DNA of 64,000 nt from an uncultured Gemmatimonadaceae bacterium (GTDB lineage Bacteria > Gemmatimonadota > Gemmatimonadetes > Gemmatimonadales > Gemmatimonadaceae): positions 224,001 to 288,000 of the forward strand of contig OY970320.1 of assembly GCA_963716745.1 (NCBI GenBank), written 5' to 3'. Below, in pieces: positions 5,475 to 53,378 of the stretch. Every line of letters begins with the position of its first letter. Within the stretch, counting starts at the first letter, position 1. The notes beneath the pieces were generated by a model. It did not search any database. It had not been told where the DNA came from and saw only the letters and a list, made by a program, of their open reading frames with translations. Made by a program: the position numbers and the translations under genes.

Positions 5475-7004
<1,530 letters not shown>

Positions 7005-7142
7005 TCGGAGCGACGAGTATGCCGGCCATCCTCACGGATGAGCTCGGACGAAAGTCCTCGGAAGTCGCCGTCTCGGCAACCCTCTCTCGATTTCGATTGT
7101 ATGCGCACGCCGTCCTCCTTCGGGAAGCCGGCGCGCGTTTCA

Positions 7143-7156
7143 ACGCTGTTTGACAA
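7143..7156 (+). promoter_or_regulatory. boxA-like antitermination element (spacer)
   Basis: Identical 14-mer to 5305-5318. Confidence 0.7.
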
Positions 7157-7258
7157 ACGAAGTGGTGTAGATCGTGGGAAGCGAATCATCACAAGACGAT
7201 CTTTATAATTTCGTCACTCGTGATAGAAACGCGCGTGCTTTGTAAGAACAGAATTTGT

Positions 7259-10215
<2,957 letters not shown>

Positions 10216-10333
10216 ACTCCCAAATTGCAACACGCAGAGCATCGCGTTTCATTACGAGGACGATTTTCTTACCCACGATCTACACCATTCCGTTTCTCTC
10301 TTCAGCTTTGTCATCCGTATTCCATCGATGAAC

Positions 10334-10450
10334 GCTGGCGACTAGAGCGTAGGGGCCACACTCGTTCCCATCCCGAACACGATCGTTAAGCCCTACAGCG
10401 CCAATGGTACTCCGCCCGTGAGGGCGCGGGAGAGTAGGCCGTCGCCGGCA
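10334..10450 (+). rRNA. rrf: 5S rRNA
   Basis: CCCATCCCGAAC and GGGAGAGTAGG; terminal GCTGGCGAC/GTCGCCGGC stem. Confidence 0.97.
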
Positions 10451-11673: not shown

Positions 11674-12727
11674 GTGAAGCATCTGCGCTGGCTCCTCGCG
11701 CTCGTCCCGTTCGCGATCGGCGCCAAGTGGTTCGGCGCGTCGCCCATCGCGGTGTTCGCCCTGAGCGCCGGCGCGATCATTCCGCTCTCGGCGCTCCTCG
11801 GCGACGCCACGGAAGAGCTCGCTGGCCACGCGGGGCCGTTGGTCGGTGGCCTGCTCAACGCGTCGCTGGGGAATCTCGCCGAGTTGATCATCGGCGTGCT
11901 CGCGATCCGCGCGGGGATGCTCGATCTCGTGAAGGCGTCGATCACCGGATCGATCCTCGGCAATCTCCTGCTCGTGCTCGGCGCGGCGCAGTTCGGCGGG
12001 CGGCCTGAAATTCCAGACGCAGCGCTTCAGCCGGCAGCTCGCCGGGCTCAACACCTCGTTGCTCGTGGTAGCGGTCGTGGGGCTCGTCGTGCCGGCGCTC
12101 TTCCACCTCGCGCATCCCGATCCATCGAACCGGCTCACGCTCACGATGTCCGAGTTCGTCGCGGCGCTGCTCGTGATCGGCTACGCGCTCTCGCTGCTGT
12201 ACTCGATGGGCACGCATCGCTCGGCGTTCGGCGGCGTGGGCGAGGTGGCGGGCGGGGAGCACGCGCCCACGTGGAGCCTGCGCCGCACGATCGCGATGCT
12301 GGTCGCCGTATCGGTGGGGCTCGCGTGGATGTCGGAATTGCTCGTGGGTGCGACGCGCGGCGCCGTGGCCGCGACGGGGCTCTCGGAGTTCTTCGTCGGC
12401 ATCGTGCTCGTGCCGATCATCGGCAATGCGGCGGAGCACAGCACGGCGGTGATCATGGCAATGCGCAACCGGATGGATCTCGCGATCGGGATCGCGCTCG
12501 GATCCACGGTGCAAGTGGCGCTGCTCGTCGCGCCGCTGCTGGTGTTCACCGGACTGGTCTTCCACCAACCAATGGATCTCGCGTTCTCCGTGTTCGAAGT
12601 CGCGAGCGTGGCGCTCGCGGTGTGGATCGCCTCGGTGATCGTGCAGGACGGTGAATCGAACTGGTTGGAGGGTGCGTTCCTGCTCCTCGTCTACGCGATC
12701 CTCGGGGTTGCGTTCTACTTTTTCTAG
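11674..12727 (+). CDS. Ca2+/H+ antiporter (CAX/ChaA family); apparent frameshift near 12000
   Basis: GGLLNASLGN, GSILGNLLLV, PIIGNAAEH, GSTVQVAL and GESNWLEG motifs spread over two frames. Confidence 0.9.
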
Positions 12728-12818
12728 TCGTCTACGTACACCAGCGACTTGCAAGCCACACTTGGACTTACAGAGGCGCCTGATCGAGTGACGCCGACCG
12801 CCCCGAGGACCGCCTAGC

Positions 12819-13787
12819 GTGGCCCAGCCCCACGCCGTGTACTTCTCCCCGGACGCGACGACGCCACCCGAGTATCTGCGCGGGTGGTTCGAGTCGCGCG
12901 CGCTGGGCATGGTGGTCTGCCAGCGGGTGGACGATCTCATGGCCATGGCGCTCCGCGGCCGCCCGTCGGTGTGCGTGTTCGACGCGCGCACGGCGGCCGA
13001 CGCCGCGCTCACCGCCTGCCGCCGTCTCAAAGGCGATCCGTATACCGGTGTCGTTCCGGGTGGCGTGCTTGCCGCCGACGGCGGTGCGGCGCTCGCGGCG
13101 GCCTTCCAGGCCGGTGCCGATGAAGTGCTGTTGCCCGGCACGCCGGGCGACGAAGCGGTGCTGCGGCTCGACGTGATGCTCCGTCGCGCGGATCGCGACG
13201 TGCACGTGCATCCGTCCACCCGCCTGCCCGGCGCCCCGGAGATCGAGGCGGAGATCGGGCGGAGACTGGCGGCCGGGGAGACGTTCGCCGCATGTTACGC
13301 CGATCTCGATCACTTCAAGGAGTACAACGACCGGTACAGCTATTACGAAGGCGATCGCGTCATCCGCATCCTGGCGAAGATCCTGCACGACGTGGCGCGC
13401 GGCTATTGTCCCGAGGACGGATTCGTGGGCCACATCGGCGGCGACGATTTCATCTTCATCGTGCCGGTGCGATCGGCGCCGGAGATCTGCCAGGAGATCG
13501 TTTCGATCTTCGATGCGCTCGTGCCGTGCCAGTATTCCGAACAGGACCGTTTGGCTGGATATTTCTTCGGGAAGGACCGGCGCGGGCAATTGCACCGGGT
13601 GCCGCTCATGACGGTGTCGATCGGCGTGGTGACCAACGAGCGCCGGGCGTTCACGCATCCGGCGCAGGTGAGCGAGCTGGCGACGGAAATGAAGAGCTAT
13701 GCGAAGACGCTGCCGGGCTCGGTGTACGTGGTGGACCGGCGGCACGATCCGATCGTGGGCGCGCCCGTGGGCGCGTCCGAGCGCTGA
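12819..13787 (+). CDS. Diguanylate cyclase (GGDEF domain, GGDDF) with degenerate receiver-like N-terminus
   Basis: ADLDHFKEYNDRY..GD, FVGHIGGDDF, TVSIG. Confidence 0.88.
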   Translation: MAQPHAVYFSPDATTPPEYLRGWFESRALGMVVCQRVDDLMAMALRGRPSVCVFDARTAADAALTACRRLKGDPYTGVVPGGVLAADGGAALAAAFQAGADEVLLPGTPGDEAVLRLDVMLRRADRDVHVHPSTRLPGAPEIEAEIGRRLAAGETFAACYADLDHFKEYNDRYSYYEGDRVIRILAKILHDVARGYCPEDGFVGHIGGDDFIFIVPVRSAPEICQEIVSIFDALVPCQYSEQDRLAGYFFGKDRRGQLHRVPLMTVSIGVVTNERRAFTHPAQVSELATEMKSYAKTLPGSVYVVDRRHDPIVGAPVGASER

Positions 13788-13813
13788 GCTAAAGGGAGAG
13801 GGCCGAGAAAGCG

Positions 13814-14770
13814 ATGAACGTCATTTGCCCGGAGTGCGGTTCGATCTTTCGCGTGGACCCCGCCAAGATCCCATTGGGCGGAGTGCGCGCGCGGTGCTCC
13901 GTATGCGGCGGCGTGATCGCGATCGGCGATTCCGGTTCGAGTCTGGGCGGGAACGCCGCGGCTGCGATGAGCGGCTTCGGAGCGGGGATCCCGGCGCCGG
14001 CGCCGGTGCGTCCCGCGTTCGCGCCGTTGGCTGCCGCGCCCGCGCCGGCAGCACCACCCGCGGCGCCGCAGCCGCCGAGATTCTCCGGACCGGTGCGCGC
14101 TCCCGCGCCTGCCGCGCCGCCCGCGCGGCCACCGATCGAGACGCCGGCGTTCATCGCGCGCCCGCCGGCGCCGGCGGCGGCCATGCCGGCGATGCCGGCG
14201 ATGCCGACACAGGTACGTCCCGCTGCGCCGCGTCCGATGGCGCCGCCGCCGGTCGCGCCGCCACCAGTTGCTCCGGTCGCGCCCGCGGCTGCTCCGGCGG
14301 CTCCGCCGCCGTTCCGCATGAACGCGCCGGCTGCGGCGCCTCCTGCGCCCGCTGCCGCGGCGCCAATGGCGCCCATGGCGCCGATCGTCCCGGTCGCGCC
14401 AATGGCGCCGGTCGCCCCGCCGCCGGCGGCACCCGCGCCACCGCCTGCTCGCACCAGCGGCCCCGCGGCGCAGCGCGCGACGGCGGCCGTGAGCGGCGCG
14501 CGCGCGCCGATCAACCCGTTCCTCGCCAACGATCCCAACCAGAAGGCCAAGCGCCTCGCCCGTGCGCTCGTGTCGGACATCGTCGCGTACTTCCCCGAGA
14601 AGCACCAGGAAGGCGTGCGCAACGGCACCCTGCGCGAACTCTTCCGCGAGGAGATCAAGAAGAGCTACGAGGAGTACATGGATCAGATGGGCAAGGAATT
14701 CGCCGATTCAACCACGCATTTCCAAGACGCGCTGAACGACGTATTGGCGCAGGGCGCGAAAGTTTTTTGA
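13814..14770 (+). CDS. MJ0042-type zinc ribbon + Pro/Ala linker + RomX-like C-terminal domain
   Basis: N-terminal CPECGSIFRVDPAKIP..GVRARCSVC; about 190 aa of P/A low complexity; C-terminal KAKRLARALVSDI...F.DALND.L. Confidence 0.8.
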   Translation: MNVICPECGSIFRVDPAKIPLGGVRARCSVCGGVIAIGDSGSSLGGNAAAAMSGFGAGIPAPAPVRPAFAPLAAAPAPAAPPAAPQPPRFSGPVRAPAPAAPPARPPIETPAFIARPPAPAAAMPAMPAMPTQVRPAAPRPMAPPPVAPPPVAPVAPAAAPAAPPPFRMNAPAAAPPAPAAAAPMAPMAPIVPVAPMAPVAPPPAAPAPPPARTSGPAAQRATAAVSGARAPINPFLANDPNQKAKRLARALVSDIVAYFPEKHQEGVRNGTLRELFREEIKKSYEEYMDQMGKEFADSTTHFQDALNDVLAQGAKVF

Positions 14771-14888
14771 TTTCTGACGTCTCAGTCTAACGTCTAAGTC
14801 TGTAGTCATATTATACTTCGGCTGCACCACGAGCCGTCACGCCTTGGCTTGACGGCTCGCTCCTTTTCCAAGCACCTCATCGAGAGCC

Positions 14889-16005
14889 ATGGCCGAGACG
14901 GAACGCGCGCGGCGACTGCGAAAACATGAAGAGCGGCTCGCTGAGCTAAGGGGGTATCTTTGACCTGGACGCGAAGCGGCGCGCGCTTGGCGAGCTCGAA
15001 TCGCGCATGGCGTCCGACGGCTTCTGGAACGATCAGGAGCGCGCGCGCAGCGTGATCGCTGAGGCGAACGCGATCAAGGGATGGCTGGAGCCATACGACC
15101 GGCTGACGGCGCGCGTGAAGTCCGACATCGAGATGGATGAGCTGCTCACCGCCGAGCCCGATGCGGAAATGGCGGCGGAGCTGGAGCGTGACATCGAGTC
15201 GCTCGAGGTGGAGGTACCCGCGCTCGAATTGCGCGCCCTCATGCAGGGCCCCGACGATCATCGCGACGCGATGCTCGAGATCAGCGCCGGCGCCGGCGGC
15301 ACGGAGGCGCAGGACTGGGCCTCGATGCTCATGCGCATGTACACGCGCTGGGCCGAGCGGCGCGGATTCACAGTCGAGGTCCTCGACCTGAGCGAAGGCG
15401 AAGAGGCCGGGATCAAGGGCGCGATGCTCGAGATCCACGGCGCGAACGCGTTCGGCTTCCTGCGCGCGGAGGCGGGGGTGCACCGGCTGGTGCGCATCTC
15501 GCCCTTCGATTCGCAGTCGCGGCGGCACACGAGCTTCGCTTCAGTGTTCGTGTACCCGATGGTGGATGACGAGATCAACATCGAGCTGAGAGACGAGGAC
15601 ATTCGCATGGATGTCTTTCGCGCATCGGGCGCCGGCGGGCAGCACGTCAACAAGACGAGCTCGGCGGTGCGGCTCACGCACATCCCCAGCGGCATCGTGG
15701 TGAGCTGCCAGCAAGAGCGGTCGCAGTTCAAGAACAAGGCGACCGCGATGAAGATGCTGAAGAATCGCCTCTACCAGCGCGAGGTCGAAGTGCGCGAGAA
15801 GAAGCGCGCCGAGCTGAACGACACGAAGATGGATGTGTCGTTCGGCAGCCAGATCCGCAGCTACGTCTTCCAGCCGTACACGATGGTGAACGATCACCGC
15901 ACGGAGCTGAAGATCACGGACGTCCAGAAGGTGATGGACGGCGCGATCGATCCGTTCATCGAGGCCTATCTGAAGCAGGGCGGCGCGAACCCGGTGACCA
16001 AGTGA
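14889..16005 (+). CDS. prfB: Peptide chain release factor 2 with programmed +1 frameshift
   Basis: ATG 14889; AGGGGG-TAT-CTT-TGA-C at 14949-14964; SPF and GGQ motifs. Confidence 0.97.
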
Positions 16006-42875: not shown

Positions 42876-44537
42876 ATGTTCTTTTCCCGACACTTGGGCG
42901 CCGCGTTCATCGCGCTCGCCGTCGCGGCCACAACGGCGTCGGCGCAGCATGTCGATCGCGGGAAGCTCGACAGCGGGTTCGCCGCGCCCGTGAAGAAGCC
43001 CACCGGTCCGACGGTCAAGTTGGCCTCGCAGGATTCCTGCAAGATCGTGCTCGACTCGCCGGACGACATCAAGGACGCGGCGTCGCAGCTCGCGTTCGCG
43101 CAGATCGGCAAGGGCGATGCCCAGAAGAAGTACCTCGGCAAGGCGGTCGAGAAGACGACGCTCAAGCCGGACCGCTACGCGAAGAACCAGGCGGGGCAGG
43201 AATTCCTACTTGGCCAATCGCTCGTGATGTGGACCACGATCCCCGGCACCACGAACATCATGAAGCGCGGCGACCTCGGCTTCTCCACGGACAAGGAGCA
43301 GACGATCGACATCCTGAAGACCGCGGATTCGCTCTTCACGAACGTCGAAAAGGAATTCCCGAAGTGCCAGTCGCAGACGGATGACTACCGGAAGCAGGCG
43401 TGGGGTCCGTACATCAACAAGGTCGGTCCGCTGATCAACGCCAACAACATCGATTCCGCGTCCAAGCTGCTCGACCAGGCGCTGGTCATCTATCGCGGCT
43501 CGCCGTTCTCGTACTACTTCAAGGGACAGATCGAGTACCGCAAGAATGATTTCGCGGGCGCGAGCAAATCGTTCGAGCAAGAGGTAACGCTCGCCACGCC
43601 CATCATGTCGCAGAACGAGAACTACCCTGGTATCACGGAATACAGCAGCTTCTTCGCGGGCTACTCCGCGCAGAAGGCGGCAGTGACGCTCACGGGCGCC
43701 GACCAAACGGCGGAGTATCAGCGGGCGGTCACGCTCCTCCAGGCGAACCTCAAGAACTATCCGTGCGGTCGCTTCGCCGAGAACGCCGAGACGAGTCTCT
43801 TCAACTCGTTGCATGCGACGAACGATACGGAGGGCATGAAGGCGCAGTTCACCGCAATGATCGCCGAGACAAAGCCGTGCAGCGATCTGTGGTGGTACAA
43901 CGCGGCGCGCGAAGCGTCGGACATCGAGGCGATGCCGCTGGCCATCCAGCTGTCAGACAAAGCGGTGGCGTACAGCCCTTGGAGCGCCGGCTTGGGCAAT
44001 GCCGCCCAAGTGTACCTGAAGGCGAAGGAGTTCACGAAGCTCATGCCGGTGGCGCTCCGCCTCACGCAGATCGCGCCGAATAGCCAGGACAGCTGGGATC
44101 TCCTCGCACTCGGCTATCAGGGCGCCGCCGCGGCGGCCACCTCGCCCGCCGCGAAGAAGGCCTTCACCGACTCCCTAACCGTTGCGTACAACGCCGGCCA
44201 GAAGAACGTCGTCCACGTACGGGTGAACGAGTTCAGCATGGATGGCACGAAGCGGACGGCCGGCGGCACCGTCGAATTGGTCGATAACAGTCCGACCGCG
44301 CAGCCTGCGTCTAAGACGGCCAAGAAGGGCGCCACCGGCGCGAAGACGGCGGCGCCGATGGCGAAGACCATGGCGCCGAAGGACGTCATGATCCGAATGG
44401 ACTTCCTGAATCGCGCTGGCGGCGTCGTCAGCTCCGATTCTGCTAAGGTCACGGCAAAGCAGGGCGAGCAGACGCCGTTCAAGATCACCGCCGACGGCGA
44501 AGCGATCGTCGGCTATCGGTACGCGCCGATCCCCTAG
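42876..44537 (+). CDS. Secreted TPR-like helical-repeat protein with C-terminal beta domain
   Basis: AAGGAG SD, signal peptide ending ASA-Q, TPR-like helices (YYFKGQIEY..NDFAGA..SF), beta-rich end. Confidence 0.8.
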   Translation: MFFSRHLGAAFIALAVAATTASAQHVDRGKLDSGFAAPVKKPTGPTVKLASQDSCKIVLDSPDDIKDAASQLAFAQIGKGDAQKKYLGKAVEKTTLKPDRYAKNQAGQEFLLGQSLVMWTTIPGTTNIMKRGDLGFSTDKEQTIDILKTADSLFTNVEKEFPKCQSQTDDYRKQAWGPYINKVGPLINANNIDSASKLLDQALVIYRGSPFSYYFKGQIEYRKNDFAGASKSFEQEVTLATPIMSQNENYPGITEYSSFFAGYSAQKAAVTLTGADQTAEYQRAVTLLQANLKNYPCGRFAENAETSLFNSLHATNDTEGMKAQFTAMIAETKPCSDLWWYNAAREASDIEAMPLAIQLSDKAVAYSPWSAGLGNAAQVYLKAKEFTKLMPVALRLTQIAPNSQDSWDLLALGYQGAAAAATSPAAKKAFTDSLTVAYNAGQKNVVHVRVNEFSMDGTKRTAGGTVELVDNSPTAQPASKTAKKGATGAKTAAPMAKTMAPKDVMIRMDFLNRAGGVVSSDSAKVTAKQGEQTPFKITADGEAIVGYRYAPIP

Positions 44538-44558
44538 CACGACTTGGGGCGTCGGATA

Positions 44559-44598
44559 AAAACGGCTCGCCGGATCTTCCGGCGAGCCGCTTTTTTTC
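44559..44598 (+). terminator. Intrinsic (probably bidirectional) terminator
   Basis: AAAA-CGGCTCGCCGGA-loop-TCCGGCGAGCCG-C-T7. Confidence 0.9.
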
Positions 44599-44644
44599 TG
44601 CTTCTAACCATTCACGCACGCAACGTCGAAGTGGCTATCCTGTC

Positions 44645-44673
44645 TTGATTTCCGGCCTTTTACCTCTTACAAT
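44645..44673 (+). promoter_or_regulatory. Sigma70 promoter for the DUF512-der operon
   Basis: TTGATT-17 nt-TACAAT. Confidence 0.7.
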
Positions 44674-44776
44674 ACTTCATGTCTCCGCAACGATATTTGC
44701 GGTGCCAAGCCAACGCTCGATTCTTTAGGGGGAGATCGCGCACTGCGATCTTCCCCTTCGCGCACGGATAGATCAC

Positions 44777-46084
44777 ATGGTTCGCGTCAGCCGCGTTCTC
44801 CCAAACTCCATCGCCGCCGAACTCGGCATCGCGCCCGGCACCGAGCTCCACTCGGTGAACGGGCGCGAACTCGCCGACTTCCTGGATTGGGAGTTCCTGA
44901 CCGCCGACGATACGCTCGCCATCGAAGCGCGGCTCCCGGGCGGCGAGGAGATCGCGTACGACATCGAGCGCCCCGACGGCGAACCGCTCGGTCTCGAGCT
45001 CGAACCGCCCACGATCCGCCGGTGCGCGAACCGCTGCGAGTTCTGCTTCATCGAGGGACTGCCGGCCGGCCTGCGCCGCTCCCTCTACGTGCGCGACGAT
45101 GACTACCGCCTCTCCTTCGCGTACGGGAATTTCGCCACGCTCTCGAACGTGAAAGAGCGCGACATCGCGCGCATCCTCGAATACCGGCTCTCGCCGCTCT
45201 ATGTGTCGGTGCATGCCACGCCGTGGGAGGCGCGCAAGGTGCTCCTGAACAACCCGCGCGTGCCAAACATCGTCGAGCAGCTGACGCGTCTCGCCGAGGG
45301 CGGCATCCAGTTCCACGCGCAGATGGTGATCGTCCCCGGGCTGAACGACGGCGAAGTGCTCGAGCAATCGTTCGCCGATCTCTGGGCGCTCGGAGACGCG
45401 GTGCTATCCGTGGCGATCGTCCCGGTGGGTCTCACGCAGTTCTCGCATCTGTACACCGGCAAGTCGATGGACGCCGCCGCGTGTGGTGCGCTGCTGGATC
45501 ACATCGATCGCTGGGCTTCGCGCGCACTGGCTTCACGTGGTGAGCGCTGGGTGTACGGCTCCGACGAGTTGTACCTCCTCGCAGCGCGCCCGTTGCCCGA
45601 TGCGCCGTTCTACGGCGATTTCCCGCAGATCGAGAACGGGGTAGGGGCGGTCGCCTATCTGCGCCGCCGCCTCGGCGAGAGTCTGGACACGTTGCCGCGA
45701 CTCGATGGCCGTCGGATCGGCGTCGTGACCGGCGCCGCGATGGGCCCTGCGATCATGCCGGCGCTGCTGGAGCAGATCACTGCCGCCACCGGTGCCAAGT
45801 TCGAATTGATCGTGATGGAGAATTCGCTCTTCGGCCCCACCACGACCACCGCCGGCCTGCTCGTAGGCGCCGACATCCGCCGCGCCCTCGAGGGCCGCGC
45901 CGATCTCGACATGGCCCTGATCCCCGCCGAGACGATCAACGACGACGGCCTCTTCCTGGACGACGTGTCATTCGCTTCGGTGCGCGACGCGCTCCCGCTC
46001 CCGATCTTCCCCTCGTACGACTTCCTCGACGTGCTCGCGGAGTCCACCGACAGCCGACAGCCCACAGCCGGGGTCCGTAGTTAA
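44777..46084 (+). CDS. DUF512 protein (PDZ + radical-SAM-like CxxxCxxC)
   Basis: N-terminal PDZ-like segment; CANRCEFCF; RDDDYRLSF.YGNF; QIENGVG. Confidence 0.88.
   Translation: MVRVSRVLPNSIAAELGIAPGTELHSVNGRELADFLDWEFLTADDTLAIEARLPGGEEIAYDIERPDGEPLGLELEPPTIRRCANRCEFCFIEGLPAGLRRSLYVRDDDYRLSFAYGNFATLSNVKERDIARILEYRLSPLYVSVHATPWEARKVLLNNPRVPNIVEQLTRLAEGGIQFHAQMVIVPGLNDGEVLEQSFADLWALGDAVLSVAIVPVGLTQFSHLYTGKSMDAAACGALLDHIDRWASRALASRGERWVYGSDELYLLAARPLPDAPFYGDFPQIENGVGAVAYLRRRLGESLDTLPRLDGRRIGVVTGAAMGPAIMPALLEQITAATGAKFELIVMENSLFGPTTTTAGLLVGADIRRALEGRADLDMALIPAETINDDGLFLDDVSFASVRDALPLPIFPSYDFLDVLAESTDSRQPTAGVRS
46047..46069 (+). repeat. (GACAGCC)-type heptamer tandem repeat
   Basis: CCGACAGCCGACAGCCCACAGCC, the same unit as 10552-10574. 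Confidence 0.75.
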
Positions 46085-53304: not shown

Positions 53305-53378
53305 GCCCCTGTAGCTCAGGTGGATAGAGCAGCGGTTTCCTAAACCGTTGGCCGGGTGTTCGAGTCACCCCAGGGGCA
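53305..53378 (+). tRNA. tRNA-Arg(CCT)
   Basis: GCCCCTG/CAGGGGC acceptor stem; anticodon arm GCGGT-TTCCTAA-ACCGT; GTTCGAGTC. Confidence 0.95.

Follow-up and report, generated by a model that had tools for sequence, protein, structure and literature searches.

A zinc ribbon fused to a RomX-like domain in the Gemmatimonadota: a probable single-chain counterpart of RomR-RomX

Introduction

The polarity module of Myxococcus is a leading bacterial model for Ras-type spatial control. Here we describe a gene whose product joins a zinc ribbon, through a long disordered linker, to a domain resembling RomX, the small partner of the GTPase MglA in that module. The gene occupies positions 13814 to 14770 of the window, by which we mean the whole 64,000-nucleotide stretch analysed (positions 224,001 to 288,000 of the forward strand of contig OY970320.1, assembly GCA_963716745.1, from an uncultured Gemmatimonadaceae bacterium). 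Homology identifies both of its ends, co-distribution and a co-folding prediction connect it with MglA, and in our judgement it is probably the form that RomX takes in the Gemmatimonadota, a single-chain counterpart of RomR-RomX.

RomX of M. xanthus (MXAN_3350; PDB entry 8ZNA) is a stand-alone protein of ~11 kDa that binds MglA-GTP and needs RomR for its localisation (10.1101/2024.02.20.581209). According to the same source, it is helix 1 that binds MglA-GTP: the R11A/R14A substitutions abolish both binding and nucleotide exchange, D19A abolishes exchange, and in the interface derived there R11 and R14 lie near E108/E111/E115 of MglA and D19 near switch II. The binding of the RomR receiver domain was assigned there to L75, R76 and W87, in helix 3 and the tail. 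The two proteins reportedly have separate partners, MglB for RomR and MglA-GTP for RomX, and in that account RomRX is no guanine nucleotide exchange factor (GEF) but an effector of MglA-GTP, the RomR part of which sequesters MglB (10.1101/2024.10.31.621274).

Two further proteins are relevant on the side of the zinc ribbon. GltJ (AgmX; 7ZOK) belongs to the gliding machinery as a membrane protein, and its ribbon binds its own linker until MglA-GTP frees it; the freed ribbon then binds the C-terminal helix of MglB and raises the efficiency of this GTPase-activating protein (GAP) fourfold (PMC11135422). ZitP (2NB9), a different case, comes from the alphaproteobacterium Caulobacter, where it regulates pili and has PopZ as its binding partner. 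PopZ is not known outside Alphaproteobacteria.

Combinations of these parts have been seen before. A zinc-finger domain, linked by the authors to GltJ, was reported in 47 of the 471 Foldseek hits of RomX, with A0A2N6E6P0 as the illustrated example (10.1101/2024.02.20.581209). Within the phylum considered here, Table S1 of PMC9481161 credits Gemmatimonas aurantiaca with MglA, MglB and RomX (GAU_1577) and leaves RomR and RomY blank.

The present protein shares something with each of these systems and is identical with none. Like RomR-RomX, it has a folded domain at the N-terminus and then a long, disordered, Pro-rich linker, and it would have RomX activity as well; unlike that pair, it is one chain and not two, has a ribbon in place of the receiver and lacks the C-terminal region of RomR. 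With GltJ it shares the ribbon type (cysteines 5, 8, 28 and 31 in both), a flexible linker and, by analogy, an element for MglA-GTP (PMC11135422). However, GltJ binds MglA through a linker motif and has a GYF domain, whereas here a RomX-type domain is the predicted MglA-binding element and neither a conserved linker motif nor a membrane segment was seen. A0A2N6E6P0 and three metagenomic proteins (P0242, P0245 and P0258) have the same N-terminal MJ0042-type ribbon and the RomX-like motif RLA(K/R)..VSD, but they also contain a receiver and four to five RomX-like domains, against just one such domain and no receiver in the Gemmatimonadota form. Closest by phylum is GAU_1577 of G. aurantiaca T-27, which belongs to the same set of MglA, MglB and RomX without RomR or RomY, and the architecture of which is absent from the table cited.

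A zinc ribbon, a linker and a RomX-like domain in one frame

The gene and its parts are as follows.

13814..14770, + strand: whole gene, zinc ribbon plus disordered linker plus RomX-like domain, a single open reading frame (ORF) of 318 amino acids (aa) plus stop, with an ATG start
13814..13927, + strand: zinc ribbon of the MJ0042/ZitP/GltJ type, residues 1-38 (C5, C8, C28, C31), matched by PF13717, TIGR02098, 2NB9 and 7ZOK
13928..14506, + strand: Pro/Ala-rich intrinsically disordered linker, residues 39-231, from composition and AlphaFold2
14507..14767, + strand: RomX-like domain with N-terminal INPFL motif, residues 232-318, from the 8ZNA alignment and AlphaFold2
14552..14578, + strand: helix-1 motif RLARALVSD, with R247, R250 and D255 corresponding to RomX R11, R14 and D19

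An earlier note on this DNA, made from the letters alone, had proposed just this layout of zinc ribbon, Pro/Ala linker and C-terminal domain, and the ORF, the Pfam and NCBIfam matches, the composition and an AlphaFold2 model based on 46 members of the family all agree with it. Residues 1-34 match both Pfam Zn_ribbon_4 (PF13717; expectation value E 7.7e-11; 42.2 bits, the curated cut-off being 30.3) and TIGR02098 MJ0042_CXXC of NCBIfam (E 2.3e-8, 33.6 bits against 20.9). The cysteines C5, C8, C28 and C31 are provided by CPEC (13826-13837) and CSVC (13895-13906), and together with D15 they are invariant in 46/46 full-length family members. Among solved fingers the sequence matches those of ZitP (2NB9, E 5.7e-4), which also ranks second by structure, and of AgmX/GltJ (7ZOK, E 6.8e-3; the entry is titled 'Adventurous gliding motility protein X'), so that the resemblance to these two proteins pointed out in the earlier note is upheld. 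In the AlphaFold2 model the ribbon has a predicted local distance difference test score (pLDDT) of about 93. The linker that follows is 34% Ala and 31% Pro, has a pLDDT of about 46-66 and is without secondary structure. No conserved linker motif was found in the family alignment, and the distance between ribbon and domain ranges from about 60 to 368 residues among the 183 homologues that have both.

The public databases present the gene differently. The gene call on the same contig, P0261, is a product of 131 aa without the zinc ribbon, extending approximately over 14378-14770. Taken together with the fact that 197 of 380 retrieved homologues have no ribbon within their first 60 residues, this could mean that ribbon and RomX-like domain are separate and that the true product is the C-terminal 131-aa protein. 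We regard that as very improbable. No stop interrupts the frame after the ATG at 13814, which has a GGGAGAGG stretch upstream, and both parts are present in the other 183 of the 380 homologues, where a CxxC...CxxC ribbon falls within the first 60 residues. In each of the 78 related loci with both ribbon and C-terminal domain, a single open frame runs through the two, despite spans that vary from 145 to 616 aa; the fusion is for this reason real. The ribbon-less sequences are mostly short and many of them sit on contigs of ~1 kb, so they are probably truncated, or else an internal start was chosen for them. In P0261 itself the start codon has probably been misplaced within the GC-rich linker, and the public 131-aa gene model is here corrected to the 318-aa frame with its zinc ribbon.

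The RomX-like domain and its predicted complex with MglA

The C-terminal part of the protein, residues about 235-318, is a confidently modelled helical domain (pLDDT 95-98) with the three-helix-bundle fold of RomX. With phmmer, residues 240-313 align to chain positions 4-77 of M. xanthus RomX (8ZNA) with no gap and at E 1.1e-8, and a profile of the family recovers RomX at E 1.1e-10 as its sole PDB match at E <= 0.01. The likeness to Myxococcus RomX that the earlier note had drawn is thus borne out by sequence, profile and fold. Pfam and NCBIfam offer no family for the domain, only rows at chance level. The protein is not a small stand-alone RomX, since it has 318 aa with ribbon and linker, nor is it a member of the RomR family: no Pfam Response_reg match was found in it at E <= 1.

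Conservation in the family peaks at RLARAL.SD, in which R247, L248, R250, L252, S254 and D255 are invariant in 46/46 full-length members. These residues include the equivalents of R11, R14 and D19, through which RomX acts on MglA. At the other end of the domain the picture is the opposite. The Leu-Arg pair of RomX helix 3 that contacts the RomR receiver aligns to A312-Q313 (it is the only such pair in that helix and has chain positions 76-77 in the HMMER numbering, one off that of the paper), and the protein stops at residue 318, short of the position of W87. As R11, R14 and D19 are invariant and L75, R76 and W87 have no counterparts, the MglA side of RomX has been kept and the RomR side has not. 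A further difference from RomX is the INPFL motif that precedes the domain.

For a prediction of the complex, MglA from the same genome (alignment of 16 sequences), with GTP and Mg, was co-folded with the 91-residue domain (alignment of 17) alongside three controls. The score was 0.69 (individual runs 0.72, 0.69 and 0.67) as against 0.01 for the best of the three controls. Solved complexes attain the mark set for such scores in 116 cases out of 157 and mismatched pairs in 2 out of 215; this calibration is only rough here, its set having neither ligands nor user-made alignments. The runs share at least 96% of their contacts, and the pLDDT of the partner is at least 88. In the models the contacts of helix 1 (K244, R247, L248, R250-L252, S254 and D255) fall on MglA residues 108-118, on the P-loop (20-22) and on switch II (82-86), which is the published RomX-MglA interface. 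There was no solved complex with the M. xanthus RomX sequence for the program to remember, since its only PDB entry has one chain. The prediction supports the view that the domain binds the MglA of its own genome.

The conserved PINPFL motif in front of helix 1 is also predicted to contact MglA, in part at an insertion of 33 residues. This insertion (~33 residues, about 160-195) is found in the MglA of genome families f1 and f2 (in the present genome the gene is at C1:2982311-2982985) and not in that of M. xanthus. In families f4, f5, f7 and f8 MglA is a protein of 192 aa without the insertion and the INPFL motif is degenerate, so that the motif is complete only beside the insertion. This pairing fits the co-fold but represents a single evolutionary event.

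MglA, MglB and RomR in the genome

The genome consists of one contig of 3.29 Mb and is 89.8% complete by marker genes. It carries mglB directly followed by mglA at C1:2981811-2982985. MglB (161 aa) matches M. xanthus MglB at E 6e-34 and aligns almost to the C-terminus; MglA (225 aa) matches its M. xanthus counterpart at E 1e-85 and keeps E108, E111 and E115. There is one copy of the RomX-like domain. At C1:43194-44959 three tandem Roadblock/LC7 ORFs precede a second MglA (44378-44959), a paralogue with 49% identity to the main one; two MglA matches are likewise found in most genomes of families f1 and f2. Elsewhere (C1:189017-189722, locus L002) a 117-aa Roadblock protein adjoins a 138-aa single-domain receiver, and these may be a further pair resembling small-GTPase regulators.

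As for RomR, none of the 36 receiver-domain ORFs of the genome has a RomR-like Pro-rich tail (maximum 7% Pro), a negative based on architecture and on the published table for another species, no RomR sequence search having been made. With no RomR-type protein found and the RomR-binding residues not kept, ribbon and linker most likely take the role of RomR. With respect to what the system would control, five ATPases of the T2SSE family are encoded along with PilM, and a search for flagellin gave none, which makes type IV pili a plausible output; type IV pilus polarity is probably what the system governs.

Distribution of the domain and of MglA

In a database clustered at 90%, relatives of the domain number 1196 among sequences of 174-557 aa and 2022 among those of 30-173 aa, and 1077 representatives came out of an exhaustive search at E <= 0.001. 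Of the best genomic matches (80, in 79 loci) nearly all are labelled Gemmatimonadota, one Acidobacteriota and two only 'bacterium'. The ESM Atlas holds the relatives as unnamed clusters, the commonest phylum being Gemmatimonadota for two and Acidobacteriota for one. A word-based search gave no longer relatives of 558-2000 aa; the exhaustive search gave P0242, P0245 and P0258 (764-968 aa), with zinc ribbon, receiver and four to five RomX-like repeats. These repeats produce spurious weak Pfam matches to Act-Frag_cataly. At the short end, genus g67 (loci L133-L137) has a fusion of about 148-154 aa, with a linker of about 30-45 residues, that probably starts at a TTG.

To compare the occurrence of the two proteins, one and the same sample of 201 Gemmatimonadota genomes was searched for the domain and for MglA (E <= 1e-30 for the latter). 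Of these, 153 have the domain and 157 have MglA; the two occur together in 152 and neither in 43. Only one genome (G106) has the domain alone. Five have MglA alone: G088, G074 and G134 (weaker MglA matches only), G043 (a 480-contig assembly) and G027. Leaving out four unpublished genomes (G156, G056, G181 and G096, all with both) changes little, with 148 genomes having both, 43 neither, 1 the domain only and 5 MglA only (n=197). Families f9-f12 are without both, and of the 24 genomes of family f7 it is the same 10 that carry domain and MglA. The earlier note had named two findings that would tell against its proposal, a lack of profile or structural similarity to RomX and the absence of an MglA/MglB system from genomes with the fusion, and neither occurred: the similarity is there, this genome has mglB-mglA, and co-distribution with MglA is phylum-wide.

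One may nevertheless ask if the domain is only a diverged relative of RomX that no longer acts on MglA, the protein being a ribbon scaffold with some other partner. Three-helix bundles are common folds, Pfam and NCBIfam have no entry that covers the domain, mglBA is about 2.7 Mb away from the gene, whose neighbours are housekeeping genes, and shared ancestry alone could account for the co-distribution, related genomes not being independent. But it would then be difficult to see why the best-conserved stretch of the family, RLARAL.SD, should be precisely the MglA-contact motif of RomX, or why presence and absence of domain and MglA should match genome by genome even within family f7, where each occurs in 10 of 24. 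The co-fold, too, passed its mark with all controls at or below 0.01. Loss of the MglA connection thus seems to us quite unlikely.

The upstream gene and the surroundings of the locus

The gene immediately upstream, and the hairpin that follows the fusion, are these.

12819..13787, + strand: receiver-like plus GGDEF gene, possibly co-transcribed, its membership of the system uncertain (PF00990, E 1.8e-11)
14830..14859, + strand: terminator-like hairpin, then CUCCUUUUCC (-21.4 kcal/mol, z -4.3, 0/200 shuffles as stable)

The upstream protein has a GGDDF motif (13437-13451) and PDB matches of the PleD/WspR type; its receiver-like domain is very divergent and falls short of Pfam Response_reg at E <= 0.001. 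In 66 of the 79 loci the GGDEF gene is the immediate upstream neighbour, the other 13 being cut by contig ends. The same adjacency occurs in families f2, f4, f5 and f8 and is absent from genome G090 and from 5/5 genomes examined of genus g67, where the fusion (L133-L137) lies upstream of prfB-lysS with no GGDEF gene in front of it; L142, where the region examined missed the gene, and L143, at a contig end, were left out when the upstream gene was counted. Downstream, prfB-lysS is present in 78 of the 79 loci and in 13/13 of a second set. The hairpin at 14830-14859 was not called by a consensus terminator scan, and a sigma-70 promoter scan of 12500-15100 gave nothing.

This arrangement suggests another possibility, namely that the zinc-ribbon protein serves as adaptor to the receiver-like/GGDEF protein encoded upstream, its RomX-like bundle binding that receiver and so linking the synthesis of cyclic di-GMP (c-di-GMP) to MglA or to a pole. 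The two genes are separated by just 26 nt and bracketed as a pair by terminator-like sites at 12693-12713 and 14830-14859. A receiver domain is moreover a known binding partner of RomX (10.1101/2024.02.20.581209), and the conserved K316 and terminal F318 could conceivably stand in for RomX R76 and W87. Still, the adjacency is missing in G090 and in all five g67 genomes, which offer at least 4.8 kb of upstream DNA and which, like G090, keep both the fusion and MglA. Since prfB-lysS is conserved just as well, the gene order may be merely inherited. The contacts for the RomR receiver align to A312 and Q313 in a protein that ends before the W87 position, and the upstream domain that would have to be bound falls below the Response_reg threshold. 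The adaptor explanation is, in our opinion, unlikely, and a functional link of the zinc-ribbon gene to c-di-GMP is possible, if weakly supported.

The other neighbours are housekeeping genes (prfB, lysS, a clpC-like gene, bamA and lpx genes). The prfB gene (14890-16005) shows the classical programmed +1 frameshift: from the ATG at 14890 the frame runs to an AGGGGG before CTT TGA at 14958-14963, and the long frame of release factor 2 continues after the shift to 16005. The window also contains a complete ribosomal RNA operon at 5475-10450 (16S 5475-7004, 23S 7259-10217, 5S 10334-10450) and transfer RNA genes, three at 443-722 and one at 53305-53378.

Interpretation and significance

The reading that we prefer is that of a Gemmatimonadota RomX in which one chain does what RomR-RomX does with two. 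Binding, its dependence on GTP, the biochemical activity, the partner of the zinc ribbon and the output are what we infer on this basis. The C-terminal three-helix domain would bind the MglA of the genome, probably in the GTP form, through helix 1 (R247, R250 and D255) and the INPFL motif. It might act there as a nucleotide-exchange factor, as a recruiter specific for the GTP state, or as both. The GltJ/ZitP-type ribbon and the Pro/Ala linker would replace RomR, positioning the RomX domain and coupling it to a partner that may be MglB, by analogy with the GltJ ribbon, or else a polar landmark. The engagement of MglA by the C-terminus is backed by homology, conserved residues, co-distribution and the co-fold; for the other half of the reading, a role of ribbon and linker in localisation or in coupling to MglB, our inference draws on the relatives of the domain.

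Several points weigh against this interpretation or limit it. The second MglA paralogue could be the true partner of the RomX-like domain. The GEF activity of RomX is itself disputed (10.1101/2024.10.31.621274). The absence of RomR and the calibration of the co-fold carry the limits given above. Docking of the ribbon on the RomX-like domain, after the manner of the GltJ switch, was sought in the 318-aa model (predicted template modelling score, pTM, 0.37) and in the 154-aa short-linker form of g67 (pTM 0.52); both AlphaFold2 models have confident end domains and disordered linkers and leave the arrangement of the domains undefined (no error map). In the survey, G027 (MglA, no domain) and G106 (domain, no MglA at E <= 1e-30) are two high-quality exceptions, and because related genomes are not independent, the 152/43 split stands for only a few events of gain or loss.

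A more far-reaching version, which we put forward as a somewhat doubtful possibility, is that MglA, MglB and the fusion form a minimal three-protein switch, the ribbon binding MglB or a landmark and the RomX domain binding MglA-GTP. In such a switch the Pro/Ala linker would set the reach or drive polar clustering, and a single chain would do the work of RomR, RomX and perhaps MglC of Myxococcus. The switch might also be co-expressed with the receiver-like diguanylate cyclase and in this way be tied to c-di-GMP.

With regard to novelty, the earlier note had pointed to an uncharacterised polarity module outside Myxococcota, and this went too far: a RomX in this phylum is already entered in Table S1 of PMC9481161, and ribbon fusions appear in the preprint mentioned above. 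We found no published text on a ribbon-RomX architecture in Gemmatimonadota, though preprint supplements (Table S2) may list such proteins. To this the present work adds the single-chain form found across the phylum, a RomR interface that has been lost, the co-distribution with MglA, the predicted interface and the corrected gene model.

For the Myxococcus module there is dispute over the nature of RomR-RomX, exchange factor or effector, and over the manner of its coupling to MglB. A phylum-wide single-chain RomX with a GltJ-type ribbon would be a simpler natural system in which to follow the effect of the RomX domain on MglA and the way in which it is positioned, and the Gemmatimonadota include cultivable members.

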